Numbered from the stretch's first letter, positions 39,711 through 57,000 are shown. The stretch: 64,000 nucleotides of DNA from Candidatus Thorarchaeota archaeon (GCA_030593165.1 JAUVHR010000001.1:25025-89024), one strand, 5' to 3'. Program-made: numbers and translations. Notes: generated by a model not told the origin, from the sequence alone.

Positions 39711-39775
39711 AGTGCTGCCCCCGCCGGGACTTGAACCCGGTTTCAAGAATGATATTTTCTTGCGTTGTTTGACAC
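39711..39775 (-). repeat. decayed tRNA-Asp 3' portion (copy 1, no T-loop intron)
   Basis: agtgctgcccccgccgggacttgaacccgg matches the tRNA-Asp 3' end. A degenerate anticodon stem (CAAGA..TCTTG) is still visible. There is no 5' acceptor strand. Confidence 0.7.
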
Positions 39776-39838
39776 TCTTATTAATTTCCAGAGTCTTGCA
39801 TCTCACACATCATCAGATAATTGGTAACGTGATTTTGA

Positions 39839-40696
39839 ATGAAATTCGTTAGAACTGGAAAGTATAGACAAGATGCCCTCGAGCGTTCAGTCGAGATTAA
39901 TTCTCTTGAGGAAGCACGGGCGCGATTGAAGCGAATGAACTACTTACTTGGATTTGTCAGAGAACGAAATCCAGAAGTTCTTCTGGAATACGTAAACAAT
40001 CTCCTAGCCAAATATCAGGGTCTACTGGAGGATGAGCGAATGAAAGCAAATCCATTTGACCTAGACGAACTCGTATCTGAGAGTCCAAATATGACCGAGC
40101 ATTTTGAACTCGCAAGAGTTTTTCTGAACTACTTTCTACAGATACTTCAATTACCAGCTGAAACCAGCCTGGGGAAAAATAAAGTTGTTAACAGGAACTA
40201 CTTTCAATCATTTTCATATCTTAGCTATTACAATTTACTAGCTTTAACTGAAACTCTTGGCCGAACAGATGCAATTGCCCTGTACAAGAAATTCGTTACA
40301 CACTACATAATCGATAGTAGGAATCCAAATAGAGATACTTACGACAATCTCGAAACCCTTTATGCGAAGGCAATAAAACTCAAAGAGGTACCATCTGAGT
40401 GGGTAATTGTTCACGGAATGATTGGGGATGGAAAATATGCTTATCGGAACGATAACTGCCTATTGCTTGATGCTACAGAAGACCTGCCCGATTCTGAGCT
40501 AAAATACTATGTTTGTTGTTATGGAGATTTTGAAAACGCCAAGAATCATCATGACAGTATAATCCTAACAATGGAGCACACACTCGCCCAAGGGGATCCG
40601 TACTGTTCCCGTGTATATCATGACACTCGGGTTGACTGGGACTTACGGCATCCTCCGAAGAGTTTCTGGGACAGTATGAAACCTGATAATGAATAG
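39839..40696 (+). CDS. hypothetical protein (C-terminal Cys/His cluster CCYGDF..HH..H..GDPYC)
   Basis: 285-aa ORF that fills the interval between tRNA fragment copies 1 and 2. Confidence 0.5.
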   Translation: MKFVRTGKYRQDALERSVEINSLEEARARLKRMNYLLGFVRERNPEVLLEYVNNLLAKYQGLLEDERMKANPFDLDELVSESPNMTEHFELARVFLNYFLQILQLPAETSLGKNKVVNRNYFQSFSYLSYYNLLALTETLGRTDAIALYKKFVTHYIIDSRNPNRDTYDNLETLYAKAIKLKEVPSEWVIVHGMIGDGKYAYRNDNCLLLDATEDLPDSELKYYVCCYGDFENAKNHHDSIILTMEHTLAQGDPYCSRVYHDTRVDWDLRHPPKSFWDSMKPDNE

Positions 40697-40725
40697 ATGC
40701 AGAAGCTGAGTCTGGTAAGGAGAAA

Positions 40726-40770
40726 AGTGGCGCCCCCGCCGGGATTTGAACCCGGGATAGTCCAAGTATC
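40726..40770 (-). repeat. tRNA-Asp 3' fragment (copy 2, no T-loop intron)
   Basis: agtggcgcccccgccgggatttgaacccggg is the acceptor 3' strand plus an intact T arm (CCGGG-TTCAAAT-CCCGG) plus CCA and trailer. Confidence 0.8.
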
Positions 40771-40906
40771 AAACTGTTTCAGAAGAAATCTTTCAACACC
40801 TGAAAAAGCGTGAATCATCATCTTAGGTTAGTAATCTCGGTGCACGATTGCGTTAAAATGAAGATTATTAATCCACGGAAGTGTCCGAAATCAAAGGATA
40901 TCAACG

Positions 40907-42061
40907 ATGAGATTTCCGGGTCTTATTATTCTTACATTAATTGTAGTCATGCCTATTTCGAGCCCTATTACTGTTTCATCTATGAAAGCTGAGATGGCGA
41001 ACCCATACTTGTTGGCACAGACAGAAAACCCATCAGCCAGATTCCTACCAGGTATGGTCTATGACCCTGTAAATGAACACGTTATGTTGTTTGGAGGAGG
41101 ATATGGTGCTGCTTCGCTTGACGATACTTGGGTTCTTGATTATGAAACCAGCACTTGGACCGAGCTAGTACTATCAACCTCTCCAAACCCGCGACACTCA
41201 CATGGCATGGTCTTTGATTCGAATAATGAGGTAATCATCCTTTTCGGTGGTTACAATGGAGCATCCCCAGCTAGAGACACATGGGTCTTCAATTGCACAT
41301 CAGAAATATGGACTGAGGTGACACCTGAGATATCCCCTCCCGAAAGAATGTCTCACGCTATGGTATATGATTCAGTAAATGGAAAAGTCATTCTCTTCTC
41401 CGGATATGGTCTAGATGGTCCTGAGGTTGACGATACCTGGACCTACGATTACACAACAAATACTTGGGAGGAGATGAATCCTACAGTATCCCCCCACGCA
41501 AGATATGGGGCAGCTTGTGTCTATGATGACGTAGATGAAACTATGATCATCTTTGGAGGCAATTCTAATGGGTACTTCTCAGATACATGGAGTTACGATT
41601 ACTCAACTGACACATGGACCGAGCTATCTCCCATGACTCATCCGATACCGCTCAAATGGTCTTCTATGACATATGACTCAGTGAATCAGAAATCTATCCT
41701 CTTTGGGGGTGACATAAACTCTCCTATCGTATCCAATAAGACATGGATTTTTGATTCTGCAGTCAATGAATGGGAGGAAAGTGAAACTACAATTGCTCCA
41801 TCAAGCAGAGAGGCATGTGGATTTACTTTCGATTCTAGAAATGAAAAGGCCATTCTCTTTGGGGGAACAAAGGGAACTGGTCAACCCGGAGACCCTTTCA
41901 ATGAAACGTGGGCTTATGATTATACAACGGACTCTTGGACTAAAATAGAGCATGAAATAGGTGATATTCCTCTACCATTAGATTCACTTTTGATTCTCGG
42001 TACAATAACTTTGGGAGCCGTTGCACTCGTTATTGTATATGCTTATTTCAGGAAGAGATAG
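40907..42061 (+). CDS. secreted/membrane-anchored Kelch-repeat beta-propeller protein
   Basis: Signal-peptide-like N-terminus, about 6 repeats of ...FGG...DTW.YD...W.E..., and a C-terminal TM segment. Confidence 0.7.
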   Translation: MRFPGLIILTLIVVMPISSPITVSSMKAEMANPYLLAQTENPSARFLPGMVYDPVNEHVMLFGGGYGAASLDDTWVLDYETSTWTELVLSTSPNPRHSHGMVFDSNNEVIILFGGYNGASPARDTWVFNCTSEIWTEVTPEISPPERMSHAMVYDSVNGKVILFSGYGLDGPEVDDTWTYDYTTNTWEEMNPTVSPHARYGAACVYDDVDETMIIFGGNSNGYFSDTWSYDYSTDTWTELSPMTHPIPLKWSSMTYDSVNQKSILFGGDINSPIVSNKTWIFDSAVNEWEESETTIAPSSREACGFTFDSRNEKAILFGGTKGTGQPGDPFNETWAYDYTTDSWTKIEHEIGDIPLPLDSLLILGTITLGAVALVIVYAYFRKR

Positions 42062-42106
42062 TCTATCAGATATTCCAACACATATGTTCATCGACTTGAT
42101 AGAAAG

Positions 42107-42224
42107 AGTGGCGCCTCCGCCGGGATGTTCCAAAATCACCGAAGTGGTGATTCTTCTTGAACCCGGTTCTCAAGAGATCCGTTCCAAGGTGTCAACCACA
42201 ATGGATTGACAGTCTTGAATGCTA
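42107..42224 (-). repeat. tRNA-Asp 3' two-thirds (copy 3) carrying a canonical 37/38 intron and the T-loop intron
   Basis: Aligns with 45662-45749, apart from a 30-nt insert exactly between the anticodon-loop A37 and C38. The acceptor 3' strand is CGGAGGC. No matching 5' acceptor strand was found. Confidence 0.75.
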
Positions 42225-42330
42225 GACTCTCATCATAGACTATTTACCTCTTAGAATTCAAAACAGACGCGCTAGTGGGAGAGAATCGAACAAGCACTAT
42301 GACATATCCTGTCACAATCTATAACGAAGC

Positions 42331-43083
42331 CTACCTAGACCAATTAGAATTATCAACAGCTTCATATCCACACTTCAGACATTTAGCTCTGAACTTCCCC
42401 AACTCTGCTTTTCGTATAGCCACTTCTCCAGGGTATGGAAGATTAAGCTTTGCCCATCTGGTATTCAGACATTTTCCCCTACACCAAATTTGCACCAAGT
42501 ATTCTATTGGAGTAGATGCGGCATATGCTGGCAATGACGGTAAATCAGGCCCAGATCGTACTGAAACATGTTCCATCATTCTCTCATGGTACTCAGAATC
42601 TTCTTCTTCAGCATCATATATTACATGAACAGGGTTGAAATACTCAGTCCAACTGAAGTCCACATTATCTGTCCAAGAAACAAGGAAAATTTTCTTCACT
42701 CCTCGATGCATCAGGTCCTGTATACACTCACCTCCTGCATCGAATTTCAAGGAGTCTATTGGGTAGACTATTGCGATATCAATACTACGCGGAGATGATT
42801 GCCAAGTGGTCCGTTTTATTGTGTCTGGAAAGAGAGTGAATCCCCTTTGAACACTAATCGGTTTACCAATCTTCGGATCCCTGTCTAGCCCCAATGTTTC
42901 CCCCAATATCTTCAGGTTATTTGTCCGAAAGAGAATTGTAGCTGGAGCTGGATACTTTGAAAGAACGAGTTCAAGGACAAGAGGATGCTTCATCTTTTGG
43001 TGTGTACCTGTTAGAAGCAGAGTCTGATTGGTTCCCTTGAGGAAAGAAGATATTTTTTGGATGGCTTGCAATTTAGTATTCAT
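42331..43083 (-). CDS. hypothetical protein with C-terminal Zn-ribbon
   Basis: 250-aa ORF with CRGKC...CLKCG. Confidence 0.45.
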   Translation of the reverse strand: MNTKLQAIQKISSFLKGTNQTLLLTGTHQKMKHPLVLELVLSKYPAPATILFRTNNLKILGETLGLDRDPKIGKPISVQRGFTLFPDTIKRTTWQSSPRSIDIAIVYPIDSLKFDAGGECIQDLMHRGVKKIFLVSWTDNVDFSWTEYFNPVHVIYDAEEEDSEYHERMMEHVSVRSGPDLPSLPAYAASTPIEYLVQIWCRGKCLNTRWAKLNLPYPGEVAIRKAELGKFRAKCLKCGYEAVDNSNWSR

Positions 43084-43247
43084 ATCTGTATCATCTTTCT
43101 ATGAGTAGATACCGTAATAAAATCAGACCCTAGTTTCAAGAGTGAAGTATTAGAGTCACCTAATCCTTACTTGCTTCGAGTAGCTGTCCTCAGCTGTACA
43201 AATTCGCTGCATTAGTTTGATTAGTTTTGGCATGATATCTTTGAATT

Positions 43248-43592
43248 TTGAATATTTATTGGGAGTCATACCTTGGAAAGGATATTCATTGGAGCACGTC
43301 AACCCTAGCACTCATTTTGGAAGAACTGATGGTCAAGGAGAAAGCAGCAGAACTCGGTATCTCAATAACTGAGGAAGATAACTACTATTCGATTTTGAAG
43401 AAAGTTAAGGAAAAACTGAAGGAAAAAGGTACAAGGATGAGTCGTGATTTCAAAATAGCTGACGCACATCGTAAAATAAGAAACGATGTGTTTCACGAGG
43501 GGTGGAATGCTACTGAAGAAGAAGCCTACGATATAATAGGACATGTGAGAAATTTGGTAACCTTTTTGAATCTCAAGCCAATTAAGAGATAG
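43248..43592 (+). CDS. small HEPN-like protein (Rx4H motif)
   Basis: AHRKIRNDVFHEGW matches the R-N-x-x-x-H HEPN signature in an all-helical ~110-aa protein. Confidence 0.5.
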   Translation: MNIYWESYLGKDIHWSTSTLALILEELMVKEKAAELGISITEEDNYYSILKKVKEKLKEKGTRMSRDFKIADAHRKIRNDVFHEGWNATEEEAYDIIGHVRNLVTFLNLKPIKR

Positions 43593-43606
43593 ATTACCGG
43601 ATGAAA

Positions 43607-44182
43607 TTATAGTTGAATATCAAAAACAGGAGCATTGGGTTCTTCAATTACGCCATCATGAAATATAATCCATCTACAGTCTCGCATCTCTTTGCCCAAA
43701 ACCAGATAGAATCCATACTTGTAGTGATAGGTTGTTGTCAATTGCACAAGTTTGTTAGAATCATACCTTCTTGTTTTCGGCTTATCAGTAGTCCATTTCT
43801 TTAACTCAAAACAAATGAAGTCAGATTCAGAATTTGCTTCCCTTTTGTGTACTATAATATCGACATATCTTCGTCCTTTTCCGCCAATTTTGAGAAAGTA
43901 CTTCTGATCTTGTTCGTCCCATATTATATTGCCATTTTCATCCAACACTGGATTTCCCTCGTTATCTAGCCTTTTTTTGTAGGAGCTATCATAATGACTG
44001 TCAACAAAGAAATCCTCCCCAATTATGCTTTGAAGATGATGTGCTAAACGAAAAGTAAAGCAAAGTTCATGCATCATTTTATCCTGTTTTCTTTTGAATA
44101 GTTCAGCATCAATTTTATACAGTCTAATGAGAGTGTTTCTTACTAACTCTTTTACCTCTTCTAAAGAAGAATCACGATTCAT
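43607..44182 (-). CDS. PD-(D/E)xK nuclease-fold-like protein
   Basis: RRYVDIIVHKRE ... FICFELKKW gives the D ... E-x-K arrangement. Confidence 0.5.
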   Translation of the reverse strand: MNRDSSLEEVKELVRNTLIRLYKIDAELFKRKQDKMMHELCFTFRLAHHLQSIIGEDFFVDSHYDSSYKKRLDNEGNPVLDENGNIIWDEQDQKYFLKIGGKGRRYVDIIVHKREANSESDFICFELKKWTTDKPKTRRYDSNKLVQLTTTYHYKYGFYLVLGKEMRDCRWIIFHDGVIEEPNAPVFDIQL

Positions 44183-44406
44183 ATCTTACCCTCCATACGT
44201 AACCCTTTCATGAAACGGAATAACATAGTATTAATTTCTGTTGCTTTCCCAAAAGTGACCAATGGTACAAGATAATCACTGAAGTACAAAGTCTTGCGAA
44301 TCTATCACCATAACACCACTCGAATAAGAATATCAGAACAAGAAGGAGTTTATCTGTTCACGAATTTACAGCTTATGTAGCAGCATAACGTTGGAATTGG
44401 ACTAAT

Positions 44407-45594
44407 ATGACTTCAGATGATCTAAAACGTTTCTACATGTTGTATTTCGAAAAGGGGTTTCGAATCAAAAAATTCACCGTTGACGTATCACTTGGTAGCA
44501 AATACAAAACAGTGATAGAGCTGGTCAAGGATGAGATGAGAGAAATCATCAAGTCCGATGAAGAGGACATTGCTCATACCATCCTCAGATTCAATAACAT
44601 CACTAAATCTGATGGAACCGTTGGTCTTGCTAAAATTAGGGATTCAAGAAAATACTATGATACAATCTCAGACTTCGCTGAAAACAGAGAGGACAAAATA
44701 AAGAGAGCTCTTGAAGACCTTAAAGAAGGAAAGTCCCCGTTTCAAGGAGGGTTTTGGCATGACTTTGACAAAGCATTAGTCAAGTTACTGTTTGAGAAAA
44801 CTTCGTCCAACGATTCCGACCTACTATGGTTGAAAGAGAATTACTTTCACCTTCTTGCTTTCTATCTTAATGAAGCCAAAGAGATGATGGGTAATACCAG
44901 AGATCTGCTCTTTGCAAAACACAAGGATATTCGCTCCATATCAGATGCAGCTGATAGGATACTGTCTAAAGCTTTTCTCGTCAAGAAAGAGAAGAAAAAT
45001 CCAGTCGAGCTCTATAAAGCATATCGTCCACATCTACCTGATTCTCTTGAAAGTCACTCAGAACGAGTGTCTATTCAACTAGCCTACCTTGACGATCTCA
45101 GAACAACACTAACCAAGGCTGGCTCTCAAGAAAAGAGTATCAGGATTCTTTACGTCTTGGATGTCTATCGTCGTGTCTATGAAATGACTCTCCCAATCTT
45201 GGACCTGCTACGTATTGCCATTCTCCTTCATAATGAGGAAAAAGAAATTGAATATAGTATGTCAGCTAACGATATTGTCACCATTTTAGCTGAGAATGGG
45301 TATTCTGGATTTGTAGAAGCTTTCAATCCCCAAATCAGACATTGTGAGTCCCATCTCGCAACAAGGATTAGTGAAGGCAAGGGGAAGGTGCTTCTAACAA
45401 AAAGGGAAGGTCTTCGTCGAGTAACGATTCAAGAGTATAGCTATGAGGACATAGTTAGCTACCAAAGTCGGCTGTATGACGTGGTATTTCCCGCTCTTTA
45501 CTATACTTTCGTAAAATTGGATGGATTTCTCAAACTCTTGTTATTAGATTCGTTCGAATATCAACTCCTACTGATATCTAAAATTGCTGCATGA
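44407..45594 (+). CDS. hypothetical helical protein with a second Rx4H motif (IRHCESH)
   Basis: 395-aa ORF. FNPQIRHCESHLATRI resembles Abi/HEPN-type motifs. Weak. Confidence 0.4.
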   Translation: MTSDDLKRFYMLYFEKGFRIKKFTVDVSLGSKYKTVIELVKDEMREIIKSDEEDIAHTILRFNNITKSDGTVGLAKIRDSRKYYDTISDFAENREDKIKRALEDLKEGKSPFQGGFWHDFDKALVKLLFEKTSSNDSDLLWLKENYFHLLAFYLNEAKEMMGNTRDLLFAKHKDIRSISDAADRILSKAFLVKKEKKNPVELYKAYRPHLPDSLESHSERVSIQLAYLDDLRTTLTKAGSQEKSIRILYVLDVYRRVYEMTLPILDLLRIAILLHNEEKEIEYSMSANDIVTILAENGYSGFVEAFNPQIRHCESHLATRISEGKGKVLLTKREGLRRVTIQEYSYEDIVSYQSRLYDVVFPALYYTFVKLDGFLKLLLLDSFEYQLLLISKIAA

Positions 45595-45663
45595 TATTGA
45601 TGCGGTACCACAAAGTTGCCCTTGTGGCTGTCTACTTCAATTTTTGATACAAGAATGAGAAAG

Positions 45664-45801
45664 TGGCGCCCCCGCCGGGACATTCCAAAACCACCGTAGT
45701 GGTGATTCTTCTTGAACCCGGGTCTCAAGAGTGACAGTCTTGAATGCTATTTCGGGCATCATGGGAAATCCATGATGTTGACCGGACTACACTACAGGGG
45801 C
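45664..45801 (-). tRNA. tRNA-Asp(GUC) with two 30-nt introns (D-loop and T-loop)
   Basis: The reverse complement gives acceptor GCCCCTG/CGGGGGC and the D arm GTGT-AGTCCGGTC[intron AACATCATGGATTTCCCATGATGCCCGAAA]TA-GCAT. Anticodon arm is CAAGA-CTGTCAC-TCTTG. T arm is CCGGG-TTCAAG[intron AAGAATCACCACTACGGTGGTTTTGGAATG]T-CCCGG. CCA is encoded. Confidence 0.8.
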
Positions 45802-45824
45802 ACTGGTAGCGGGGTCGAAATGGA

Positions 45825-45837
45825 ATTTTCTATTAAA
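45825..45837 (-). promoter_or_regulatory. TATA-like element of tRNA-Asp (TTTAATAGAAAAT on the tRNA strand)
   Basis: Lies 24-36 nt upstream of the tRNA 5' end. The same 13-mer recurs at 53487-53499, upstream of the 5' fragment. Confidence 0.55.
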
Positions 45838-45974
45838 CCTGTCGGAAGTTACACTCTAGAGGAATGGGATTTTTACAAATTCCTAAATAGATGGGAGGAT
45901 AAAATGTAAGAAAATATGTAAAATTCCTCCATACTAGCCCTCTCCTTACTTAAGAACGGTACAAGATTCCCGTT

Positions 45975-48900
45975 CTATCTCTTGATGAGCTTCTCCATTC
46001 TCATCAGTCTAACACACTCTTCCACTGCGCTGTCCTCATCCTCCTCACTGAGGTTGAACTCCCCCAGAATTGACCTGACCTCACTCTCAAAGTCCTCCGT
46101 ATCTATACGTCCGAATTCCCTAAAGTCATGAAGATGTCCTGTCACTGGCACTTTGTGACTCTGATCCTCTGACTCCAAGACCACATACATGACCCTCCCT
46201 CCTGCTGAGTCCTCTCCTATCGTCGCCAGGAAAAACTCGACCCTTGCTTGGTCCTCTTCGACTCCGTACATCTCGACTGCAACTGCCATCTCCTCTCGTA
46301 TGGCTGCGGTCATCCTCCTATCCGCCCTGACCCCGATTTCCTCTAGGAACACCTTCATGGCCTGTTCTAGAAATTCCTGCACTTCCGAGGTAGTCCACAG
46401 GGCAACGTTCCGTTCAGGGATTTTTCTCTCTCTCGTTTGTTCACTGCTCTTCTCCCTTAGACCCACTGTCACATACTCTGGTGTTATAGCAAAGAACGGA
46501 CTCCACCTGTCCGGGTCTCGTAGATGCGCTCCAGGAAGGTCTGGGTCAAGCCTCCGTCCTGTCAACTCCTCTAGCATCACTCTAAGGTGCCATGACTCCC
46601 GTACCTCTTCAATGCACTCTCTTCGGACCACAATCTTGAACGTATGCGTCACCCACTCTTGCTGTGGACTGGACCAATAGACAAGCTCCTGCGAACTCAG
46701 AAGGGCTCTCACTTGAGTGTCAGTGAACCGAGCCTCCATGAGTCCTATCAGTTCGGGTGTGAGAGTCTGTGTTGAGTCCACATGAACTCTCCAGCATGAC
46801 CCGTGATGTATCCCTGGCTCGTTGCTGACCCTCTCAGGTTCGGCCCAGTCACTCTCGTACCTGAATTGGTACAGGTGTCCCAAGGTCTTAGACCTGTGGT
46901 GGGCCTTCTGTATTGCCTCCATTGAGGTGTGTCTTAGGGGACAGGTCCAAGGGTCATGATACAGCTCCAAGGTCATATCGAACCCCTTGCTCGCATCCAG
47001 AAGCTCGTTTGCAGTGGGCGGGAGCTTCAGGGGTAGACCAACAAAGGGCTTGTGTCTGTTCACCCACGGTCTGAGTAATGCGACATCTTCATCATAGGAG
47101 ATGTCCTTGAACCTGTTCCAGATCAACCGTTTTCCGTTGATGATGACAGGTTCGCACTCGTTGTCAGGTCGCCTGAGAATCTCAAGAAGGTCAACTGTCC
47201 TGTTGATCAAGAGCTCTCCAAGCAACTCGTCAGAGGCTTTCTCTTCAAAGGTGATCTTGTACATTCGCTCTTCCTCATCAAGAGTGATCTTACAAATCGC
47301 AGGAGTGCATTTCTTCAGTCCTTTATTCAGGATAAGCAGGGCTATGTCAACTAGACTCCTCACTTGATGTATGGGAGTCCGCACATCGTCAAAGCCAACG
47401 GGTTGAAGATGAGGGTCTGCGGAGAGTGATATAGTGCGGATGAGGGTCACATCCTCAAACCGTCTGGTGGTGCAATGAACCCGTCCAACTGGAGTCCATC
47501 GTCGGTGCTCTCTGTCCCTTACCCAGAGGACCTGTAGTCCCTGATAATCTGCAATCATCACTGGTACTCTGACCTCATCTCCCTGTAGCTTGGCATACTG
47601 ACTGAGGAGATTCAGATTACTCTCACTCCAATAGGTCCTTGCTGACACCATCTCGTGGAGAAGCCTCAGAGGTGAGAGAGAGGGGTTGACTCCTTTTGGA
47701 CTCAGAAGGGCGGCATTCATGTCATAGATGCCTGGTGTTCGTTGGAAGAGCAACCAGAAACAAGTAGAGCCAGCAGCTCTTGAAGAGGGCAGGGCAATCA
47801 GTTGTCCAAACCTGACATTGGTCAAGGATACTTGCAGATCGAGTGATTTGTTGTGGGCGATGACACGTTGCTGTAGTCGTTTCAGAAGCCTATGTCTATC
47901 AAGCACTGACCTTCCTGTCCTGTGGCTCCTTGGATAGGCCGGTCTGAGTCCTAGACAAACAAGATGCCATGGTTGAACATAGTCCCACAGAGAATGATGT
48001 ACCTCTGTGAACGCTGTATCAGGGATAGACCCCAAGACGGTAAGTATCAGAAGGAAGAGATGATTCCCTGTGACTACCAAGATGTCAGGATGTCTTTTCT
48101 GAATTGTGGTCACATGTTCTCGCTGAGCCAAGGTGAGGTCTCTTGGAACAGTAGAGCGAAGAGGTAGCAGTCGCTCCCACACCTCTACGCTCAGAGGATT
48201 GGTCTCAAGAATCTGTCGGACGAGTCGAAGTCTGTTCATCAGAGTGGGTGTATCCTCTAAGTAAATCTCCTCACTAGTGGAATCAAGTGCTTCAGATAAG
48301 TGATCAAGTAGTTCTATCAAGTGACTCCCATCATCGAGTCTTAGGAACTTGATAGTGTCCCTAAGATATCGTATCTCTCTAAGCGCAATCCTGTAATCGT
48401 CCATTTCGCTGACCGAGAGATAGTACTCTGAGGGAGGAAGCGTGCACCGTTTTGGGGGAGCAACATCAAGCTCCATATGCCTGTACTCTCTCCTTTGATT
48501 GATGGTAGCCATCGGAAGCAAGAGCTTCACTCTTCCATCGACATCCTTCTGAGTTTGGACGTCGACCTGACCATCGTCCTCTTTCTGAGCATACACCTGA
48601 CTGGGTCTGAATGACAACATAGGGGAAGGGTCTTGTGGCATATCATATCCTGAAGTCACATGTTCAATCTTGAGTGAGAGGTTTGAGTCTGGTCCTTTGC
48701 TGTATTCGTTTTGAGAGAGGAGATGTGGGATGAATTCCATGGCACGTTCCAGTTTCTTCTCCATATGCTCACTACTGTATTGTGGTGAGGATGAACCAGT
48801 CCCCCTGTGAAAGACTGCCTTGCTCTTGCGCCCACCGGACCGGAAGTCCTTACCCCATCCTCTCAACGGCTCAATCCCGATCATCATACGTTCGAGAGGT

Positions 48901-51380
48901 TGACCCAATCGCTCAATGAAGATTCCTCGCTCATGGTCATTAGTGGGTGCCCTTGCTCCAGTACGATCCGGTGGCATTGCTACGTTCCAAACTATTGTAT
49001 TAACAAAGTTCTGCCACAGTGTCCCTTGATAGAATGGGGCAACACATCTTGTTGCATAGACTGTGCTACTCTGCGGAAGAGGTACGGGACGTGCAAACCA
49101 CAGGGTAGTGCTCTCGCTGGGGAGGGCTTGAATGATGGTTGTTGCAATCTCATCAAGATACTTGTGGTGTGAGTCCGGTGTGCTTCGACGAAGGGTCTCC
49201 CAGCCCGAAACCACTATGATAGGGTCTCGCCCCTCTCTCAGTATATCATCTATCCTTTTCCGGAGAGTGCCGATACGCTCACCATTATAGATACATGCCT
49301 CCACTTGATTCGACAGGTCCTTCACCTGGACACGTCGTTTGAAGAATCGTCTGATTGGGTCAGGCTGATACCTCAATCTAAACTGTTTCTTTCTTAGAAT
49401 AGGGTCATTGTACTCACCAACAAGGTCAAACCAGTACACGTCACGATGTCGCGCAAGACCATGCACGAACTCTAACCCATGCCATCGCTCTGCAATCACT
49501 GCAGCAGACTGGGAAGGAGAGCCTCCTCCCGGAACGGTGAGATAGAGGATGAACTCTTTCTGGTCCACAACTCGCTCACTGAATGGTTCTAGTGGAATAG
49601 GAGTGCTCAACTGCACAGTATCAGTGGCGGGTTTGGCAACAGAAAGCATTCTCATCGCGATTCTTAGGCGAGTATCATCATCAGAGGGGAAGAGGAGGTC
49701 GCCCTCAGATAACGTCCCATCAACACATCCATTGTACACTCTCAAGACAAGAGGAAGTACTGCATTACTGATGTCCTTCCAGTCCTGATACGAGTCGACG
49801 ACCAACACAGCTTTTACAAGCTTTTTCTGAGCATCAACATCCTTCCACATCACATTCTGATAATCTGTGAGAATAGAATCTTCATAGGCATCCAGTTGCT
49901 CAGTTTCGTAAGGATCGGGGGTGTTTGTGAGGACGTTCTCCCACTCGTCATTGGTCAGTTCTCTCCGATCCAAGACGAATTCACTCACTACATCATCCCT
50001 GTGAATAGAGCCTGACTCGATTCCATAGATATCGAAATCAAAAGCGCTCTTGGTCTTCAGGTCAATGACCATGAAGGGCTCACAAATCACGAGAGATGGA
50101 CCTCCATCAACCCGGGTCAGTTGCTTTGCCCGAGCCAATACGAGATCAGCTCGTCCTCTTCCTCCATCAATTGGGACTTCAGAGAGAAGAATGAGTCCTG
50201 AATCATCATATGCCATCTCTTTCCCGTGGTACACGATACCATTGAAACTGAAGGGGCTCTGGAAGTTGTGGGATACAAACCTGTGGATACGAACACCTAT
50301 TCTCCTGCTCTGTTCCTTTGCATGCCCCAAGAGTTCTTCAGAGTCCTTAGCTGTCAGAGTGTCACTCTCTAGCAAGTCCTCGGCGGTCTTGATGAAATCA
50401 GGATCCAGAACAACTCCCTCGTTCTTTGCAGAAGTGATTGCTTCTTGTAGGAAGTGGGTCTGTGATTCTTCCTCATCAGCTCTCTTCTCTTCCGTGTCCT
50501 CGATGACCTCATCTGACGTTTCTGCTCTGTCCTCAATAGCATCATCTGGTGTCAGGTCCTCCTCTGAAGGAGCATCCTCCGACACTGATTCCCAAACCTC
50601 TGACGTGATGGACTGACGTTGACCGTTCCTAGTACCATACTCTCTCTTTATCTGCTCTATAACGATTCTGAGTTCCTTGAGTCCACCTCGAACGTAATTC
50701 GGTCTACCAGACCTTCGCTCCGTGTAGACATAGTCCATGAAGGGGAGGAGCCTGAAGAGTAGTGCTTCGATGTACTTCTTGGCTTCCTTTAGTGGAACTC
50801 CATACTTCAGGCACTGTCTAGCAAGCTCCATCAGAGGGCTCCTGATCATATCTCCAAAATCGAGCTCTGTCAGATGGTTGTGCCTGACTGAATATTTCGG
50901 AGTCTTCGTTGATCCATGATACCCAAGTGCCAAAGACCCATCACTTCTCTCAATTGGAACAGGTTTCGGGAAGATATATCTCGATTTCACGACATCTCGT
51001 ATTCTGCTCCCGGCATAGTCCCAGAGGATGTTCAGATACTTCTTATTGCCCTCCTCCCGTTTCACACGTTTGGTTTCAGTGTTGCCATACCTCACCGAGG
51101 TCTTTAACATGATTCGAGAGAAGCTCCTTCGAAGAACATGTTCGACCTTGAGGAGTACTGATGCATCAGGGTGACGTTGAATTACAGTCTGCTGGTAGTT
51201 CCTCTTAGCCTCATCCCATATCTTTGCCATTCCCTTGATCCTATTCCCCTGTCCAAAGTACAACGGTCTTGACTTGCCTGTAGCTCTATCTCTGGCCAGT
51301 GCAAGTGTGATAGCCATACTCATCTTGAAGGCAGTAGTAAGAATTCTTGCAGGGTTTCGAGGATATTTATGATTAGCCAC
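45975..51380 (-). CDS. giant orphan protein (1801 aa): basic N-terminal domain, acidic linker, PD-(D/E)xK-like motif, ~1350-aa uncharacterised C-terminal region
   Basis: A single uninterrupted ORF. No Walker A, polymerase, helicase or recombinase motif was recognised. Residues ~395-445 (SEVPIDGGRGRADLVLARAK...EPFMVIDLKTK) fit D...D/E-x-K. Confidence 0.75.
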   Translation of the reverse strand: MANHKYPRNPARILTTAFKMSMAITLALARDRATGKSRPLYFGQGNRIKGMAKIWDEAKRNYQQTVIQRHPDASVLLKVEHVLRRSFSRIMLKTSVRYGNTETKRVKREEGNKKYLNILWDYAGSRIRDVVKSRYIFPKPVPIERSDGSLALGYHGSTKTPKYSVRHNHLTELDFGDMIRSPLMELARQCLKYGVPLKEAKKYIEALLFRLLPFMDYVYTERRSGRPNYVRGGLKELRIVIEQIKREYGTRNGQRQSITSEVWESVSEDAPSEEDLTPDDAIEDRAETSDEVIEDTEEKRADEEESQTHFLQEAITSAKNEGVVLDPDFIKTAEDLLESDTLTAKDSEELLGHAKEQSRRIGVRIHRFVSHNFQSPFSFNGIVYHGKEMAYDDSGLILLSEVPIDGGRGRADLVLARAKQLTRVDGGPSLVICEPFMVIDLKTKSAFDFDIYGIESGSIHRDDVVSEFVLDRRELTNDEWENVLTNTPDPYETEQLDAYEDSILTDYQNVMWKDVDAQKKLVKAVLVVDSYQDWKDISNAVLPLVLRVYNGCVDGTLSEGDLLFPSDDDTRLRIAMRMLSVAKPATDTVQLSTPIPLEPFSERVVDQKEFILYLTVPGGGSPSQSAAVIAERWHGLEFVHGLARHRDVYWFDLVGEYNDPILRKKQFRLRYQPDPIRRFFKRRVQVKDLSNQVEACIYNGERIGTLRKRIDDILREGRDPIIVVSGWETLRRSTPDSHHKYLDEIATTIIQALPSESTTLWFARPVPLPQSSTVYATRCVAPFYQGTLWQNFVNTIVWNVAMPPDRTGARAPTNDHERGIFIERLGQPLERMMIGIEPLRGWGKDFRSGGRKSKAVFHRGTGSSSPQYSSEHMEKKLERAMEFIPHLLSQNEYSKGPDSNLSLKIEHVTSGYDMPQDPSPMLSFRPSQVYAQKEDDGQVDVQTQKDVDGRVKLLLPMATINQRREYRHMELDVAPPKRCTLPPSEYYLSVSEMDDYRIALREIRYLRDTIKFLRLDDGSHLIELLDHLSEALDSTSEEIYLEDTPTLMNRLRLVRQILETNPLSVEVWERLLPLRSTVPRDLTLAQREHVTTIQKRHPDILVVTGNHLFLLILTVLGSIPDTAFTEVHHSLWDYVQPWHLVCLGLRPAYPRSHRTGRSVLDRHRLLKRLQQRVIAHNKSLDLQVSLTNVRFGQLIALPSSRAAGSTCFWLLFQRTPGIYDMNAALLSPKGVNPSLSPLRLLHEMVSARTYWSESNLNLLSQYAKLQGDEVRVPVMIADYQGLQVLWVRDREHRRWTPVGRVHCTTRRFEDVTLIRTISLSADPHLQPVGFDDVRTPIHQVRSLVDIALLILNKGLKKCTPAICKITLDEEERMYKITFEEKASDELLGELLINRTVDLLEILRRPDNECEPVIINGKRLIWNRFKDISYDEDVALLRPWVNRHKPFVGLPLKLPPTANELLDASKGFDMTLELYHDPWTCPLRHTSMEAIQKAHHRSKTLGHLYQFRYESDWAEPERVSNEPGIHHGSCWRVHVDSTQTLTPELIGLMEARFTDTQVRALLSSQELVYWSSPQQEWVTHTFKIVVRRECIEEVRESWHLRVMLEELTGRRLDPDLPGAHLRDPDRWSPFFAITPEYVTVGLREKSSEQTRERKIPERNVALWTTSEVQEFLEQAMKVFLEEIGVRADRRMTAAIREEMAVAVEMYGVEEDQARVEFFLATIGEDSAGGRVMYVVLESEDQSHKVPVTGHLHDFREFGRIDTEDFESEVRSILGEFNLSEEDEDSAVEECVRLMRMEKLIKR

Positions 51381-51504
51381 ATGTCCTATTAAACTTAATA
51401 TATAATAAATTCTTCGGGTAATTCGACTTTAATAAAAAACTGAATAGCTACGGTATTTCGTTTCAATTGGCCAATTTGGTGTCCTCATATCGTGCAATCT
51501 TAAT

Positions 51505-51614
51505 AACTTTATAAGAGATTTTCCAATACAAATGTACGAGTTCAAAAGTTCCCTTCGGGACAAGAAAGGGAGTGAACTCAATTGACCAGAAACGGGTCAG
51601 AACTTTATAAGAGA
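51505..51614. promoter_or_regulatory. two copies of aactttataagaga (TATA-box-like) in the divergent intergenic region
   Basis: Exact 14-mers at 51505-51518 and 51601-51614. The second ends 9 nt before the ATG at 51624, which is too close to that ATG for a standard TATA-to-start spacing. Confidence 0.45.
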
Positions 51615-51623
51615 ATCAGGCGA

Positions 51624-53315
51624 ATGACAATGGCTCGGTCCAAGGGTGTGACAATCGCGGTCAAGGTCCCTGTTAAGTGGGAATCGATGACTGAGAGGAC
51701 TAAGCAGAGGCTTAGGCAGACCGTTGGAAGAGACACTAGAGTGATTCGTGCATTCTTAGGGATAATGGAACAGCATGAAGACGAGTTGCTAACAGGTAAG
51801 AGCAGAATAAGAATTAACGACGGTGAGCTGGACCGGCTGACCATGACTGCACTCAAGGTCAAATCAGGAGCCAGTCAGAGAACCAGTGTTCCACATGACT
51901 TCAAGGTTCGATTTCCTCGAATCTCTCAGAACGAGATGACCGAGTGTAGACAGACTGCTGTCGCACTCTATGAGAGTTATCTCAGACTGAGAAAAAAGAA
52001 GGGGCGAAGAGCTTCACGTCCTACTTCAATCAATTGTAGTCGACGGATACCACGATGGGTCTTTTCCCAGAGATTCAAGCTTGTTGAAAAGAAGACCTCT
52101 ACCTCTCGATGGTGGCTTGATATCCGCGATGCTCTTGACTCAGTGCAAGAGGGGAGATCTCATCATGACAGACTGGTGGTCCCTCTCAAGATATCACCCC
52201 ACCACCTGAACCAGATCAGACGCGGTGAAGTGAAAGCCGTACAGCTCTTCACTGATAGACAACGAAAGTGGTGGCTAACAATTGCAGTTCGAATCACTAT
52301 CAATGAATCTCCAGAGGAGCATCTTCCCGTTGCTATCCTTGGAATTGACCTTGGTATTGAGAAGGCAGCTTGCTCAACCCTTCTTACTCCTGAGAAGACA
52401 CGAGAGACCCAATACTTTGTCCAGAGGGAGAAGGTCAAGTCAATCAAGAAGTACGATAGACTTGTTGCAGCTCTGCAAAGGGAGATGCATACTCGACAGA
52501 ACAATGGACTTGCATATGATGGGGTCACTGATAAGCTCGGTCACATGCGGTCCAAGAGAGAGAATGTTGCAAGGGAGTATGACCGGGTTCTTGTTCGACA
52601 GCTCCTCAACTACATCTCAGAACTCTCCAAGAAGTACACCCTCTATGTAGCCATTGGTCGCCTGAAGAATATACGAATGCGTGCTAAGCGAGGTAACTAC
52701 CAGGGGCGAAGGTTCAGAGGAATGATACACTCATGGGCCTTTGCTAGAATAACTGACAGTCTAAAGCATGGACTGGCTCAGCTTGGTTGGAAGGTTGATG
52801 GAAAGGACCCAAGGTTCAGAGCTGTTCCTGAGGGGTGGACGTCCATCATGTGCTGGATGTGTGGGAGCAAGGGAACTCGTCCCAAGCAGAACTACTTCCA
52901 CTGCCCATCTTGTGGTCACAAGACCAATGCTGATAGAAATGGTAGTATCAATATTGCTGCGCGCATGCTCAAGCTCACAAAGTCATTGCACAATGTGAGA
53001 GGACTAGGCCTGTGGACTAGAGCTCTTCAAAAGGCTCGACGTGCGCGACCGAAAGCCCAAGGGAGAATCTCGAAGAGATTGTCAAAAGGGAAGTCTTTAC
53101 TCTCCAAGAAAGGACCAACATCAGGTTCTGGAGAGTCCGCGGCCGTTCACCATGCTCAGATGAGTCTTCTCAGTTTCAGTGATGAATCTGGGATGGGTGA
53201 TAATGACCCTGCCGTGGGAAGAACTGTGGAAACACTCACTGTCGCTGGAAGTGATGGACCAGCTAAAGCACAGGAGAAAGAGGCCAGGACTGTAGGAGGG
53301 ATCCCATCCCGATGA
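51624..53315 (+). CDS. tnpB: TnpB / IS200-IS605 OrfB-like (Cas12-related RuvC + Zn-finger) protein with a ~115-aa low-complexity C-terminal tail; the track ORF starts at TTG 51582
   Basis: RuvC-I is ILGIDLGIEKAA. Also present are HSWAFARI, TS-I-MCWMCG...CPSCG (Zn finger) and RuvC-III (NADRNGSINIAARM). The block where RuvC-II hhhEDL is expected reads YVAIGRLKNIR. Confidence 0.8.
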   Translation: MTMARSKGVTIAVKVPVKWESMTERTKQRLRQTVGRDTRVIRAFLGIMEQHEDELLTGKSRIRINDGELDRLTMTALKVKSGASQRTSVPHDFKVRFPRISQNEMTECRQTAVALYESYLRLRKKKGRRASRPTSINCSRRIPRWVFSQRFKLVEKKTSTSRWWLDIRDALDSVQEGRSHHDRLVVPLKISPHHLNQIRRGEVKAVQLFTDRQRKWWLTIAVRITINESPEEHLPVAILGIDLGIEKAACSTLLTPEKTRETQYFVQREKVKSIKKYDRLVAALQREMHTRQNNGLAYDGVTDKLGHMRSKRENVAREYDRVLVRQLLNYISELSKKYTLYVAIGRLKNIRMRAKRGNYQGRRFRGMIHSWAFARITDSLKHGLAQLGWKVDGKDPRFRAVPEGWTSIMCWMCGSKGTRPKQNYFHCPSCGHKTNADRNGSINIAARMLKLTKSLHNVRGLGLWTRALQKARRARPKAQGRISKRLSKGKSLLSKKGPTSGSGESAAVHHAQMSLLSFSDESGMGDNDPAVGRTVETLTVAGSDGPAKAQEKEARTVGGIPSR

Positions 53316-53439
53316 TGACAGACAATGCTCTTGCTAACTGTAAGTTCTTCTTGAATTTGCAGGGTGGTGACACTGGCAAGAGAGGGGCGGAACACAGAAG
53401 TTTCAAGTTGGCGTTCACTCAACTAATATGAAATTGGTC

Positions 53440-53467
53440 ATGCTAGACCGGACTACACTACAGGGGC
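53440..53467 (-). repeat. intron-less duplicate of the first 28 nt of tRNA-Asp
   Basis: The reverse complement GCCCCTGTAGTGTAGTCCGGTCTAGCAT equals exon 1 plus the start of exon 2 of the 45664-45801 gene, with the D-loop intron absent. Confidence 0.85.
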
Positions 53468-53748
53468 TAAACAGGCCCAATCTTCGATTTTCTATTAAAG
53501 TTGTCGTTATATTTGCTGGCAAAAACGTAACCCTTTTACCGGTTTATGCGTCATAATCCATGGCTTTGAGTCTTGTAAGCCGCTAGATGATATGCTATTT
53601 TATCGCTTTATCGCAATCCTTTTATGGTTTCGAAAAACCCCGTCCGCTGCTCAGTTCGAACTGCTTCCCACTCATGTATGACCATAGATTGTATTATGCG
53701 TGAGCATACAATACCCTACATGGTCTGATGCTTGGTGTGCTGACGAAG

Positions 53749-53853
53749 GGGCTCGTGGCGCAGACAGGTAGCGCAGCAGGCTTTTACACTTGTTCCCATG
53801 GAATAAGTAAAGAAACCTGATGGCCGCGGGTTCAAATCCCGCCGAGCCCGCCA
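53749..53853 (+). tRNA. tRNA-Lys(UUU) with a ~28-nt canonical intron
   Basis: Acceptor is GGGCTCG/CGAGCCC. D arm is GCGC-AGACAGGTA-GCGC. The anticodon arm is GCAGG-CTTTTA[intron]A-CCTGA. T arm is GCGGG-TTCAAAT-CCCGC. Confidence 0.75.
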
Positions 53854-54016
53854 TAGAGTTTCCTTTGTTAGTGCTGGGGACAGATCACAGAGCAAACAAA
53901 CGGGGCAACTACTGCGGTATCTGAATGAGCTCGGATTTTCTGAGGTCATGCGTTGGGAAGCGCAGAGTTTCGCGGTGGTACACCCCGTCCTCATCAAGTG
54001 TCAGGTGTCATGTTTA

Positions 54017-57000
54017 ATGTCAGACGCAAAAGAACGGGGCAAATATTGGCCAGTCATTGAAGCTTTCTTTAGTCACTACGGTCTAGTAGGACAACATCTA
54101 GACTCATTCAACAGATTTGTGAGAGAAGAGCTTCAACAAGTCGTTGATAGTGTTGCTGAGCTAAAGCCAAAGGTGGAAGGCTACACAGTTGCACTTGGCA
54201 GGCTCACAATTAATCCACCTTCAGTCCGAGAGGCTGACGGAAGTGAACATTCTCTGTATCCTAACGAGGCAAGGATTAGGAACCTGACTTATGCAAGCAA
54301 GATATTCCTTGAGTGTACTCCCATCCGTAAAGAGGGTTCAGTCACTACACGCCTAGAAACTCTACGTATCTACATTGGAGATCTCCCAATTATGCTGCGT
54401 AGCGAGAGGTGTCTTCTACATGGCATGTCAGATGAGGAATTAATTCAATGTGGCGAAGACCCCAAGGACCCTGGTGGGTACTTCATCATCAATGGATCAG
54501 AACGTGTCTTGGTGACACAAGAGGATCTGGCGCCAAATAGAATTCTAATTGAGGAAGCAAGTAAAAGCTCAAGCTTCACACACGTTGCCAAGGTCTTTTC
54601 GACCTCTCGTGGTTTCAGAGCTCCTGTCACAATTGAACGGAAGCGAACTGGTGAGCTGCGCGTATCATTCCCATCCGTTCCTGGAAAGATACCCCTTGCG
54701 ATTCTGATGAAGGCACTTGGTCTAGAGTCAGACAGAGCGATTGTTGACGTAATCTCCGACGACGAAGAAATTCGCAATGAACTAATCGTGACCATAGAAC
54801 AGTCTGCTCCAATCAATGCACTTGGTGATGAAGGGGATGGTTCCACACGAACCAATGCACTAGACTTCATTGGAAAACGTGTCGCAGTTGGTCAGACCAA
54901 GGAGTACAGGTTAGCACGTGCAGAGAAAGTACTCGACAGATACCTGTTCCCTCACATCGGTACTGAGGACAAACACAGACTTCAGAAAGCATACTATCTT
55001 GGTCAAATGGTTGAGCGTCTTCTTGAGCTTGTGCTGAACAAGCGTCAGTCTGATGACAAAGACCACTATGCCAACAAACGACTGAAGCTATCAGGTGACC
55101 TACTCATGTCCCTGTTCAGAGTTGCACTCTACTCTTTGACCCGTGACATTAAGTACCAGCTTGAGCGTACTGCAGTCCGTGGCCGTAAGCCCAACATCAG
55201 AACTGCAGTCCGAGCAGATGTTATCACTCAGAGACTGAAGCATGCTCTTGCTACAGGAAACTGGGTTGGCGGAAAAGCAGGTGTATCACAGCTACTCGAT
55301 CGAACCAATCTCATCTCATCACTCTCGCACCTGCGCAGAGTGGTATCCCCTCTGTCAAGATCACAACCACACTTCGAGGCACGAGACCTTCATTCAACTC
55401 ACTGGGGTAAGATATGTCCAAACGAAACCCCTGAAGGCCCAAATTGTGGACTGGTCAAGAATATAGCAATGATGGCATACATCTCTGTGGGTACTGACGA
55501 AGAGGCAGTAGAGAGAGCCATACTTAAGGCAAAAGTGGAACCAATCGAGATTCTAGAGGGCAAAAGAGGCTCAAAGTGGGCAGATGTATTCCTCAACGGC
55601 AGGTTGGTGGGAGTTCATCCGGCCCCAATGGTCCTTGTTAAGACAATTCGTCAACAGCGTCGTGCAGGTGAGCTTGACAATGAAGTCAACATTGCTTACT
55701 ATGAAGGCACACATGAAGTACAGGTTAACTGTGATGCAGGTCGCGTTAGACGACCAGTGATTGTTATTGAGAATGGAAAGAGTCGTCTAACAGACGAGCA
55801 TCTTAGGATGATAGCTGATGGCGAGTGGGGTTTCATTGATCTTCTTCGGAATGGAATTATCGAATTCATTGACGCCGAGGAGGAAGAGAACACCCTGATT
55901 GCAATGTATCCTTCTGAAATAGGAGAGCTGACAACTCATATGGAGATTGAACCGTCAACCATTCTTGGAATCTCAGCTGCTCTCATTCCGTTTCCTGAGA
56001 GGAACCAATCTCCCCGTAATGTGTACATGGCGGGCATGGCAAAACAGTCGGTTGGTGTACCCGCATCCAACTTCAGATTACGTGCAGACACAAGAGCTCA
56101 TGTTTTCCACTACCCACAAGTTCCACTCGTGAAGACTCGTGCCATGGATTCGATTGGATACGAAGAACGCCCTGCAGGACAGAACTTTGTTGTTGGAATC
56201 CTTTCTTTCGAAGGCTATAACATTGAAGATGCTCTCATCATGAACAAGGCATCCATTGAGAGAGGTTTGGGCAGGAGTACATTCGCCCGAGTCTACGAGA
56301 GCGAGGAACGAAAGTATCCTGGTGGCCAGGAGGACCGGTTTGAAATTCCTGACCGCAGCGTGCGAGGCTACCGAGCTTCAGAGTCCTACAGGAACCTTGG
56401 AGAAGATGGGATTATTGAAACCGAAGTAGAGGTTCAGGGAGGCGACGTACTGATTGGTCGTACCTCACCACCACGATTTCTGGAAGAGTACTCTGAATTC
56501 GAGATTGCCTCACCTAATCGTAGAGAAACCTCAGTGGCTGTTCGTCATGGAGAGGCTGGGGTTGTAGACAATGTCATTCTAACCGAAACCATCGATGGAA
56601 ACCGGCTGGTCAAGGTGAAGGTCAGAGATTTGCGTATTCCCGAGCTTGGTGACAAGTACGCTTCACGCCACGGTCAGAAAGGAGTTATCGGATACATCGT
56701 ACCTCAGGCCGATGTACCGTTCACTGAGGATGGTGTTGTACCTGATCTCATCATTAATCCACATGCTATCCCAAGTCGAATGACAATTGGTCAAATCCTT
56801 GAGATGGTTGCTGGAAAGGCTGCAGCCATGGGTGGCAAACAACAGGATGCCACAGCGTTTTGTGGCGTCACTGAAGATGAACTGTTCAAGATACTCAGTG
56901 ATAACGGCCTACAGTACAATGGCCGTGAAACAATGTATTCAGGTATCACAGGCGAGAAGCTCACAGTTGACATATTCATTGGAGTAATTTACTACCAGAA

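Follow-up and report, generated by a model that had tools for sequence, protein, structure and literature searches.

Integrative elements of archaea with SSV- or pNOB8-type integrases target tRNA genes, carry partial tRNA copies as direct repeats at their borders, and accrete serially beside a single tRNA gene. Multi-intron and split tRNA genes, known from Thermoproteales, Nanoarchaeum, and Caldivirga, contain inserts with bulge-helix-bulge (BHB) motifs at noncanonical positions, which vary between close relatives, and their breaks fall at intron positions. In Caldiarchaeum subterraneum, an insertion at positions ∼24 to 27 of a tRNA-Thr gene displaced a 5' fragment together with its upstream region and left a rebuilt gene with an intron at the junction; the authors, who also summarize part of the tRNA-targeting literature, explained this arrangement by recombination between an intron-bearing attP and attB (Sugahara 2012, PMC3293823). 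Here, we analyzed a 64-kb stretch of DNA from Candidatus Thorarchaeota archaeon (GCA_030593165.1 JAUVHR010000001.1:25025-89024; the window, in full) in which a single tRNA-Asp gene between an SIS gene and tRNA-Lys/rpoB is flanked by incomplete copies of itself. Insertions have repeatedly scarred this hotspot, and the incomplete copies are their relics. We consider it probable that they stem from serial insertions, that one gene (D) still works, and that the 5' piece (E) was cut off by the insertion of a unit composed of a giant open reading frame (ORF) and a TnpB gene. Coordinates are positions in the window, W denotes the window locus, and L numbers denote the related contigs or loci that were compared with it. 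The tRNA-Asp features are the following:

39713 to 39752, minus strand: relic A, a 3' piece (tRNA positions ∼35 to 76)
40728 to 40756, minus strand: relic B, a 3' piece (positions 48 to 76)
42109 to 42227, minus strand: relic C (positions ∼18/20 to 76)
42126 to 42155 and 42177 to 42206, minus strand: 30-nucleotide (nt) inserts in the T-loop and the anticodon loop of C, respectively, with strong BHB geometry
45664 to 45801, minus strand: gene D, the predicted working tRNA-Asp(GTC), a cloverleaf after in silico splicing, with inserts in the T-loop (45681 to 45710) and the D-loop (45750 to 45779)
45825 to 45837, minus strand: TATA-like promoter box of D, TTTAATAGAAAAT, recognized by sequence conservation among relatives
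53442 to 53467 (53440 to 53467 if an ambiguous "at" is counted), minus strand: relic E, a 5' piece (positions 24 to 1)
∼53487 to 53500, minus strand: TATA-like promoter box of the former resident gene, upstream of E

Comparison of the D region with the whole window by BLAST returned A, B, C, and E together with a 13-mer, which are exactly the sites named in an earlier reading of the sequence (the original prediction), and no further copy in the 64 kb. The matches to D were 22/24 nt for A (E 0.003), 21/21 nt for B (E 3e-6), 70 nt at 91% identity (E 3e-21) plus 18/18 nt for C, and 22/22 nt for E (E 7e-7). The 13-mer attttctattaaa, rightly placed upstream of both D and E by the original prediction (45825 to 45837 and ∼53487 to 53499), is a TATA-like promoter box; most relatives (7 of 10 genes in the comparison) have it ahead of their tRNA-Asp as well. 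Each copy had been said to follow the stop codon of a plus-strand gene by 30 to 70 nt, which holds for B, C, and D; at A, no ORF of at least 70 amino acids (aa) ends. In C, the T-loop insert was already recognized, and a second one is present in the anticodon loop.

Relic A ends in GCA, not CCA. The T-loop insert common to C and D (26/30 nt identical) is absent from seven orthologs and from A and B, which also lie further out and therefore look older. Relic C begins at the core GTCTAGCAT, and the 3' strand of its acceptor stem, CGGAGGC, would yield a C4.A69 mismatch. The distance from E to tRNA-Lys is 282 nt, compared with 338 to 370 nt for the 5' end of the gene in L001 and L004, and E thus lies at the native position of this 5' end, where it is probably the remnant of the original gene with its original promoter. 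The GTCTAGCAT breakpoint recurs in C, in E, and in L005_f1 and L043_f; C and E have this 9-nt core in common and may have arisen by the splitting of a single gene, and the relics may record four separate events or fewer.

Gene D had been described as intact. It is indeed a full tRNA-Asp, but one interrupted by two 30-nt inserts, and because of these it was not called by ARAGORN and gave no Rfam match even at E ≤ 10; seven other tRNAs in the window were found with these programs. When the two inserts were cut out in silico, ARAGORN called tRNA-Asp(gtc) with a clean cloverleaf, and the spliced sequence was identical (78/78 nt) to the intron-less ortholog of L043, which scores 61 bits in Rfam; the predicted splice junctions read GGTC|TAGCAT and TTCAAG|TCCCGG. 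The tRNA-Asp orthologs, from species with RpoB ∼90% identical, carry from 0 (L043) to 3 (L005) inserts, each of 29 to 31 nt, at five positions: D-loop, anticodon loop, variable region, T-stem, and T-loop (L001, L003, L004, L005, L006, L009, L043, L100, and D of the window). Such uniform length and fast turnover suggest mobile or templated introns. We scored the inserts with a scripted test for BHB geometry (helix, 3-nt bulge, 4-bp helix, 3-nt bulge, helix), with 300 shuffles per insert. Those of the anticodon loop and the T-loop formed a BHB motif at the exact boundaries that restore the conserved mature sequence, and 0 to 3 of the 300 shuffles were as good: the anticodon-loop insert of C had all 4 central pairs (0/300), and the T-loop inserts had 3 of 4 (2/300 for C and 3/300 for D). 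As far as these signatures tell, D is the only working gene at the locus, a multi-intron archaeal tRNA gene. Its upstream region is nearest to that of L001, that of E is nearest to those of L009 and L003, and the two score only 16 against each other; the region upstream of D is as unlike that of E as are those of other species' orthologs, so the 5' side of D is not a local copy of E. The only tRNA-Asp gene of this region escapes standard tRNA finders. Three further tRNA genes with long inserts (102 to 137 nt in total; 14021 to 14126, 17787 to 17923, and 53749 to 53850) were seen by Rfam but not by ARAGORN, and standard tRNA calls therefore undercount in this genome.

The RpoB protein encoded next to the locus (53948 to 57385) is 89 to 91% identical to RpoB of nine Thorarchaeota metagenome-assembled genomes, and in all nine tRNA-Asp lies a few kilobases upstream of rpoB. 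The shorter or empty versions that the original prediction proposed to look for in relatives exist: L004 and L001 have a minimal, undisturbed site consisting of SIS/HEAT, ∼0.4 kb, tRNA-Asp, ∼0.35 kb, tRNA-Lys, and rpoB, and the span from SIS to rpoB is ∼1.2 kb altogether, compared with 14.8 kb in the window. Between the same anchor genes, the content differs in each of L003, L005, L006, L009, and L043 and consists mostly of housekeeping genes (e.g., Kae1/Bud32, S3Ae, POR, and P-type ATPase), and extra tRNA-Asp pieces are present at the site in some relatives. The empty, intact site in L004 and L001 and the differing content in the other relatives therefore identify the locus as an insertion hotspot. 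Neither outcome that the original prediction had named as refuting it was observed: in relatives, the fragments do not stand as functional genes of their own, and, with no further copy in the 64 kb, they are not a dispersed short interspersed element or miniature inverted-repeat transposable element. Together, these results support the view that insertions to either side of a single tRNA gene left the pieces behind as relics. A search for closer strains of the window lineage returned an identical SIS protein only on one 4-kb contig, which ends before relic A, and no matching record for the Kelch protein of the window (see below); the closest TnpB relatives are at most 82% identical to that of the window.

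Two features of the relatives' loci may be added. The orientation of tRNA-Asp is flipped in L005 (7776 to 7942) and L009 (5023 to 5130) relative to the other relatives, and in L005 the genes flanking it on either side are oriented as in L043, which points to inversions confined to the locus. A tRNA-Asp-like piece, GGTCTAGCATTCAAGAACGCYACTCTTGAAAC, is conserved in L043 (6893 to 6925) and L005 (8430 to 8458), with a thioesterase gene on one side and a BPL_N-like gene on the other; it comprises the 3' side of the D-arm and the anticodon arm with a changed loop and, like C, begins at the GTCTAGCAT breakpoint.

The DNA between D and E contains three features:

45975 to 51380, minus strand: giant ORF of 1801 aa, divergent partner of TnpB, with no known domain
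51582 to 53315, plus strand: TnpB-family protein (likely start near 51648, MARSKG...), identified by Pfam, NCBIfam, a PDB alignment, and a 21-sequence alignment
53298 to 53441, plus strand: omega-RNA-like scaffold, ...GTTCACTCA...GGTCAT, defined by a 20-locus alignment and ending at the right end of the element

The original prediction had taken 45.8 to 53.4 kb for an accessory segment. It is an old conserved unit, not a recent island. Full-length homologs of the giant ORF (46 to 65% identity) adjoin TnpB in at least 8 loci, the relatives' ORFs ranging from 585 to 1842 aa, and the intergenic region between the two genes is conserved in most loci, in divergent arrangement; the giant ORF had no match in Pfam, NCBIfam, PHROGs, PADLOC, or PDB. 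The contrast in composition that had been noted by eye is real, with a GC (guanine-plus-cytosine) content of 35 to 40% at 43 to 45 kb and 47 to 53% at 46 to 53 kb (window mean, 44.7%), and the GC content of the unit is like that of the neighboring rpoB region. Across 20 loci, 15 of the 21 predicted pairs of the scaffold keep pairing through changes on both sides, and the scaffold ends at a conserved GGTYAT, straight after which the flanks diverge. In the window, it ends at 53441, directly before E, and 126 nt separate the end of the TnpB gene from E, which therefore occupies the guide position of the omega-RNA. The junction between E and the TnpB element is shared by three other contigs, L088 and, with a 13-nt deletion, L009 and L086. 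The TnpBs of these loci are only 72 to 73% identical to that of the window, so that either the junction is old or the site was hit repeatedly.

The TnpB of this unit resembles those of IS200/IS605 elements (PMC10691335) in its RuvC-I, RuvC-III, and zinc-ribbon motifs, in the structured RNA that overlaps the 3' end of the gene, and in the variable flank (guide position) straight after the right end. It also shares the GTTCACTCA motif reported downstream of tnpB for Asgard aCas1-linked TnpB groups (PMC10691335). There are also differences: the protein has ∼560 aa, it forms a fixed divergent pair with the giant ORF, and the canonical RuvC-II glutamate is replaced by an invariant glycine, with the glutamates E327 and E332 nearby being conserved. 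Residues D256 (RuvC-I) and D451 (RuvC-III) are invariant, and the RuvC-II Glu position is Gly359 (YVAIGRLKNIR) in 21/21 family members, which suggests that the family is either nuclease dead or has its catalytic residue relocated; both inactivated and "rearranged" TnpB clades have been described (PMC10691335). No TnpA was seen by Pfam among the window ORFs or in the gene tables of five related loci, most related loci not having been scanned for TnpA, and no Cas1-like gene was present among the Pfam-annotated genes of the window or of the gene-table loci, no search aimed at Cas1 having been made. We found no consistent transposon-associated motif (TAM) beside left ends or guide-like matches. 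Direct repeats of 9 to 12 nt flank the unit at four loci (W, L082, L087, and L092), an arrangement that departs from IS200/IS605 transposition and agrees with recombination at a short core. The idea of a single-copy domesticated TnpB was dropped, as one assembly has three paralogs.

Some sequence details of the element ends are recorded here. A 14-nt direct repeat, AACTTTATAAGAGA (TATA-like; 51505 to 51518 and 51601 to 51614), lies on both sides of the hairpin region at the left end of the TnpB element, and other loci have their own versions of it at the same two places. The motif aaaatgtaagaaa.at.tgtaa.att, which follows the stop codon of the giant ORF (45900 to 45940; also L087, L098, and L104), resembles the right-end tail aaatgtaagaaatgggttat and may be a second element boundary. 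The first 12 to 17 nt after the TnpB right end, at the guide position, recur in direct orientation 55 to 98 nt downstream in L082 (8191 to 8300), L089 (9851 to 9930), and L115 (11815 to 11890). The recurring sequence is the 5' end of tRNA-Ala in L082, a ∼63-nt tandem unit in L089, and in L115 the stretch around the start codon of an eIF-5/eIF-2B-like gene, where TTAT stands ahead of it as at the right end.

Giant genes of Asgard archaea are also known from the aloposons of Heimdallarchaeum, whose distant giant-gene homologs have been noted in Thorarchaeota (Wu et al. 2022, PMC8813620). Judged by that description, the unit is similar in its Asgard host and its giant ORF. W, L009, and L092 also resemble aloposons in that the giant ORF has a tRNA gene downstream, which is not so in L085, L098, L113, L115, and L116. 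The unit differs in having a single giant ORF of 1.4 to 1.8 thousand aa, compared with tandem genes of 3 to 6 thousand aa in aloposons, in lacking the four-gene ParA/MinD module, in having TnpB as the gene upstream of the giant gene, and in its many copies without a nearby tRNA.

The association of the unit with broken tRNA genes recurs at other tRNA loci. The resident tRNA-Arg(GCG) of L092 is present as two antisense pieces, one comprising positions 27 to 76 and the other, with the promoter, positions 1 to 37; they have 11 nt in common and, put together, form a perfect cloverleaf. They enclose 7.5 kb with the giant ORF, TnpB, and another tRNA-Arg(GCG), which is intact and divergent in sequence, and the 5' piece abuts the right end. 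L117 holds three 3' pieces of tRNA-Glu ahead of an intact tRNA-Glu, every one of them directly behind a plus-strand ORF, so that the relic pattern first described in the window is reproduced at another tRNA; the relics are followed by a homolog of the 395-aa protein described below, the intact tRNA-Glu, its promoter, a distant TnpB paralog (45% identical), and a giant paralog. In L100, an intact tRNA-Asp is followed by 190 nt, the element, and a 3' piece that starts at position 27. In total, tRNA pieces make up 4 of the ∼24 distinct right-end flanks in the TnpB family, which has roughly 500 members, to be set against the ∼0.1% of a genome that tRNA genes occupy by our estimate.

The sequence of events that we favor would run as follows. 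A unit of giant ORF, TnpB, and guide-RNA scaffold would have inserted at tRNA position ∼20 to 26 and severed E, by recombination at a short core within the tRNA (GTCTAGCAT at this locus). The incoming DNA would have brought the 5' part of a tRNA-Asp, or a whole gene, with its own promoter, and function would thereby have been kept. The D-loop insert of D would lie at the junction, as in intron gain via an intron-bearing attP (Sugahara 2012), and the archaeal splicing endonuclease would cut both 30-nt inserts of D out of the precursor at BHB motifs. Small gene cassettes that inserted earlier on the 3' side would have pushed away the 3' ends now seen as A, B, and C, or else C may belong together with E, which would then be the 5' half of the same gene. 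The 3' part of D shares the lineage-specific T-loop insert with C and the D-loop insert is at the junction, which for E, the element, and D fits the Caldiarchaeum model. As in Caldiarchaeum, there are a displaced 5' fragment, a junction intron, and a tRNA 5' part that flanks the insert as a direct repeat, and the inserted family occupies several genomic sites and the vicinity of other tRNAs. Unlike there, the insert is of 7.6 kb (TnpB/omega-RNA and the 1801-aa ORF) rather than 1.9 kb with a 271-aa putative recombinase, the event is old and shared across species rather than polymorphic within a population, three 3'-side relics exist as well, and the host is an Asgard archaeon.

The segments on the 3' side, between the relics and D, have the following content:

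39839 to 40696, plus strand: between A and B, an ATC_hydrolase-like ORF of 285 aa (Pfam E 6e-9)
40907 to 42061, plus strand: between B and C, a Kelch beta-propeller ORF of 384 aa (Pfam E 2e-60)
42331 to 45594, mixed strands: AT-rich block of four ORFs of 250 aa (minus), 114 aa (plus), 191 aa (minus), and 395 aa (plus)

No homolog of the 285-aa ORF was found in any related locus. In the AT-rich block, the 250-aa ORF matched phrog_36795, the 114-aa ORF was weakly HEPN-like, and the 191-aa ORF matched PD-Lambda-3_A; the matches of the two small ORFs (43248 to 44182) to defense systems are weak (HEPN-like, E 8e-4; PD-Lambda-3_A, E 2e-6). The block may be a small defense or toxin island. A recognizable provirus was rejected, since the only matches were distant hypothetical proteins of Bacillus phages and IMG/VR held no relatives. 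The 395-aa ORF (44407 to 45594, plus strand) is convergent on D, 68 nt from the 3' end of D, and has homologs only in Thorarchaeota. Its structural model is confident (predicted local distance difference test, 86; predicted template modeling score, 0.81), and we rejected it as a hidden recombinase because it gave no PDB fold match at E ≤ 0.001. Among its homologs, those of W and L117 adjoin a tRNA, in both cases convergent on the 3' end of the working tRNA and beside the TnpB/giant unit, and those of L118, L119, and L120 do not. In L118, the stop codon of the homolog lies within the 9-mer GTCTAGCAT (8183 to 8191) with no detectable tRNA nearby, which may be chance. Near A, B, or C, we found no further relics of TnpB, giant ORFs, or element ends.

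Several points weigh against serial insertion with severance of E by the TnpB unit. The small cassettes between A, B, and C hold ordinary-looking genes and no mobility genes. We scanned ORFs of at least ∼110 aa not nested in a longer ORF from 39.2 to 53.9 kb against Pfam, NCBIfam, PHROGs, and PADLOC, and two ORFs against PDB sequences; no recombinase of a known kind was found in this region by the profile libraries, by the PDB sequence search, or by the fold search of the 395-aa ORF. TnpB is not, to our knowledge, able to integrate DNA, and we know of no target duplication made by IS200/IS605 elements. Scored for strict BHB geometry, the D-loop insert of D does not stand out from its shuffles (215/300 as good). 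A strict BHB motif was rejected for this insert and for that of L100, where shuffles score as well; the D-loop inserts of L004 (2/300) and L009 (16/300) are acceptable, and splicing of the one in D appears plausible from these orthologs and from a relaxed BHB motif drawn by hand. The flipped tRNA-Asp of L009 and L005 demands additional inversions. Most TnpB/giant copies lie among housekeeping genes with no tRNA nearby, so the link to tRNAs is a tendency and not a rule. Finally, two versions of the favored reading are inseparable: D may have been rebuilt from an element-borne 5' part, or D may have been imported whole, with C and E as the split resident gene. The latter version is suggested by the layout of L092 and by the 9-nt core GTCTAGCAT common to C and E.

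The original prediction saw here the classic footprint of repeated site-specific integration. The scars and the empty site bear out repeated insertion into one tRNA gene from both sides; no integrase was detected. An integrase route would make the segments remnants of viruses or plasmids that entered through an SSV-/pNOB8-type tyrosine recombinase at an attP copying part of tRNA-Asp, with the integrase genes since deleted and TnpB a bystander. As in such elements, direct repeats of tRNA parts, all in one orientation, bound DNA that is absent from the relatives' empty site. The oldest-looking copies lie furthest from the gene, the shared cores have 9 to 12 nt as attL and attR would, phage-family and defense-like ORFs are present in the AT-rich block (42.3 to 45.6 kb), and a known model is at hand (PMC3293823). 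Against this route, an integrase gene, whole, partitioned, or fragmentary, was found neither here nor in the six related or replicate loci scanned, and Pfam revealed no recombinase in the variable regions of five relatives. The segments of 1 to 3.5 kb, with one to four genes, are too small for such elements, and one breakpoint lies in the D-arm region besides those in the 3' half. The ORFs of the AT-rich block have no IMG/VR relatives, and a junction of E with TnpB that is kept across species and recurs at other tRNAs is not what one expects of a bystander. We therefore regard the integrase route as unlikely and the original prediction as right about the kind of event, serial insertions that scarred both sides of a tRNA hotspot, and not about the agent. 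It did not recognize D as a multi-intron tRNA gene or the TnpB/omega-RNA and giant-ORF unit as the partner on the 5' side.

The location of E raises a further reading, in which E would be a working omega-RNA guide and the TnpB family, having lost the canonical RuvC-II glutamate, would use tRNA-derived guides to recognize tRNA genes, either homing the unit into conserved tRNA targets or binding and regulating the nearby tRNA gene. The D-loop insert of D breaks the guide match at its first four bases, and in L092 there are three mismatches in the anticodon stem. Inserts or base changes in the working copy as an escape from the guide would fit W and L092, and this idea fails as a general rule because the guide of L100 matches an intact tRNA-Asp at 20/20 nt. 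We hold this reading to be decidedly improbable; if true, it would tie RNA-guided targeting to the origin of noncanonical tRNA introns.

Ordinary rearrangement by tandem duplication, inversion, and illegitimate recombination, without mobile elements, with the tRNA gene and its pieces as breakpoints and with gene conversion from D keeping the pieces alike, has in our judgment a very low probability. The housekeeping genes in the relatives' variable regions and the flips of tRNA-Asp in L005 and L009 would be consistent with it, and the identity of E to D at 22/22 nt despite the old junction suggests gene conversion. It leaves unexplained why the breakpoint GTCTAGCAT recurs in C, E, L005_f1, and L043_f and why one and the same architecture, gene families included, is found at tRNA-Glu and tRNA-Arg loci, and the promoter of D is as diverged from that of E as are those of other species' orthologs.

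We give next to no credence to E and one 3' piece forming a trans-spliced split tRNA as in Nanoarchaeum or Caldivirga, for although E keeps its promoter box at the right spacing, C keeps two well-formed BHB inserts, and the break lies where relatives hold an intron, the duplex of the E trailer with the C leader (-15.7 kcal/mol; shuffle mean, -22.6) shows no complementarity above controls, C and E do not abut but have 9 nt in common and would pair with the acceptor mismatch, A has no CCA end, and an intact gene lies between pieces that, unlike the halves known from those lineages, look decayed and are noncomplementary, in Thorarchaeota.

Serial insertion at a hotspot thus remains the reading that we favor, and under it the locus offers a natural record of archaeal tRNA genes being broken, rebuilt, and gaining introns. 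How introns are gained at odd positions and how archaeal tRNA genes become split is an old open question, and the only population-level model, that of Caldiarchaeum (2012), comes from one locus. The same logic now appears in an Asgard archaeon, at tRNA-Asp, tRNA-Glu, and tRNA-Arg loci, and its recurring partners are a TnpB whose guide-RNA scaffold has covariation support, the giant ORF, and the 395-aa protein without a PDB fold match. These provide comparable loci at which to ask whether mobile elements deliver introns, which enzyme acts at the tRNA cores, and whether a TnpB without the canonical catalytic glutamate may use tRNA-derived guides.

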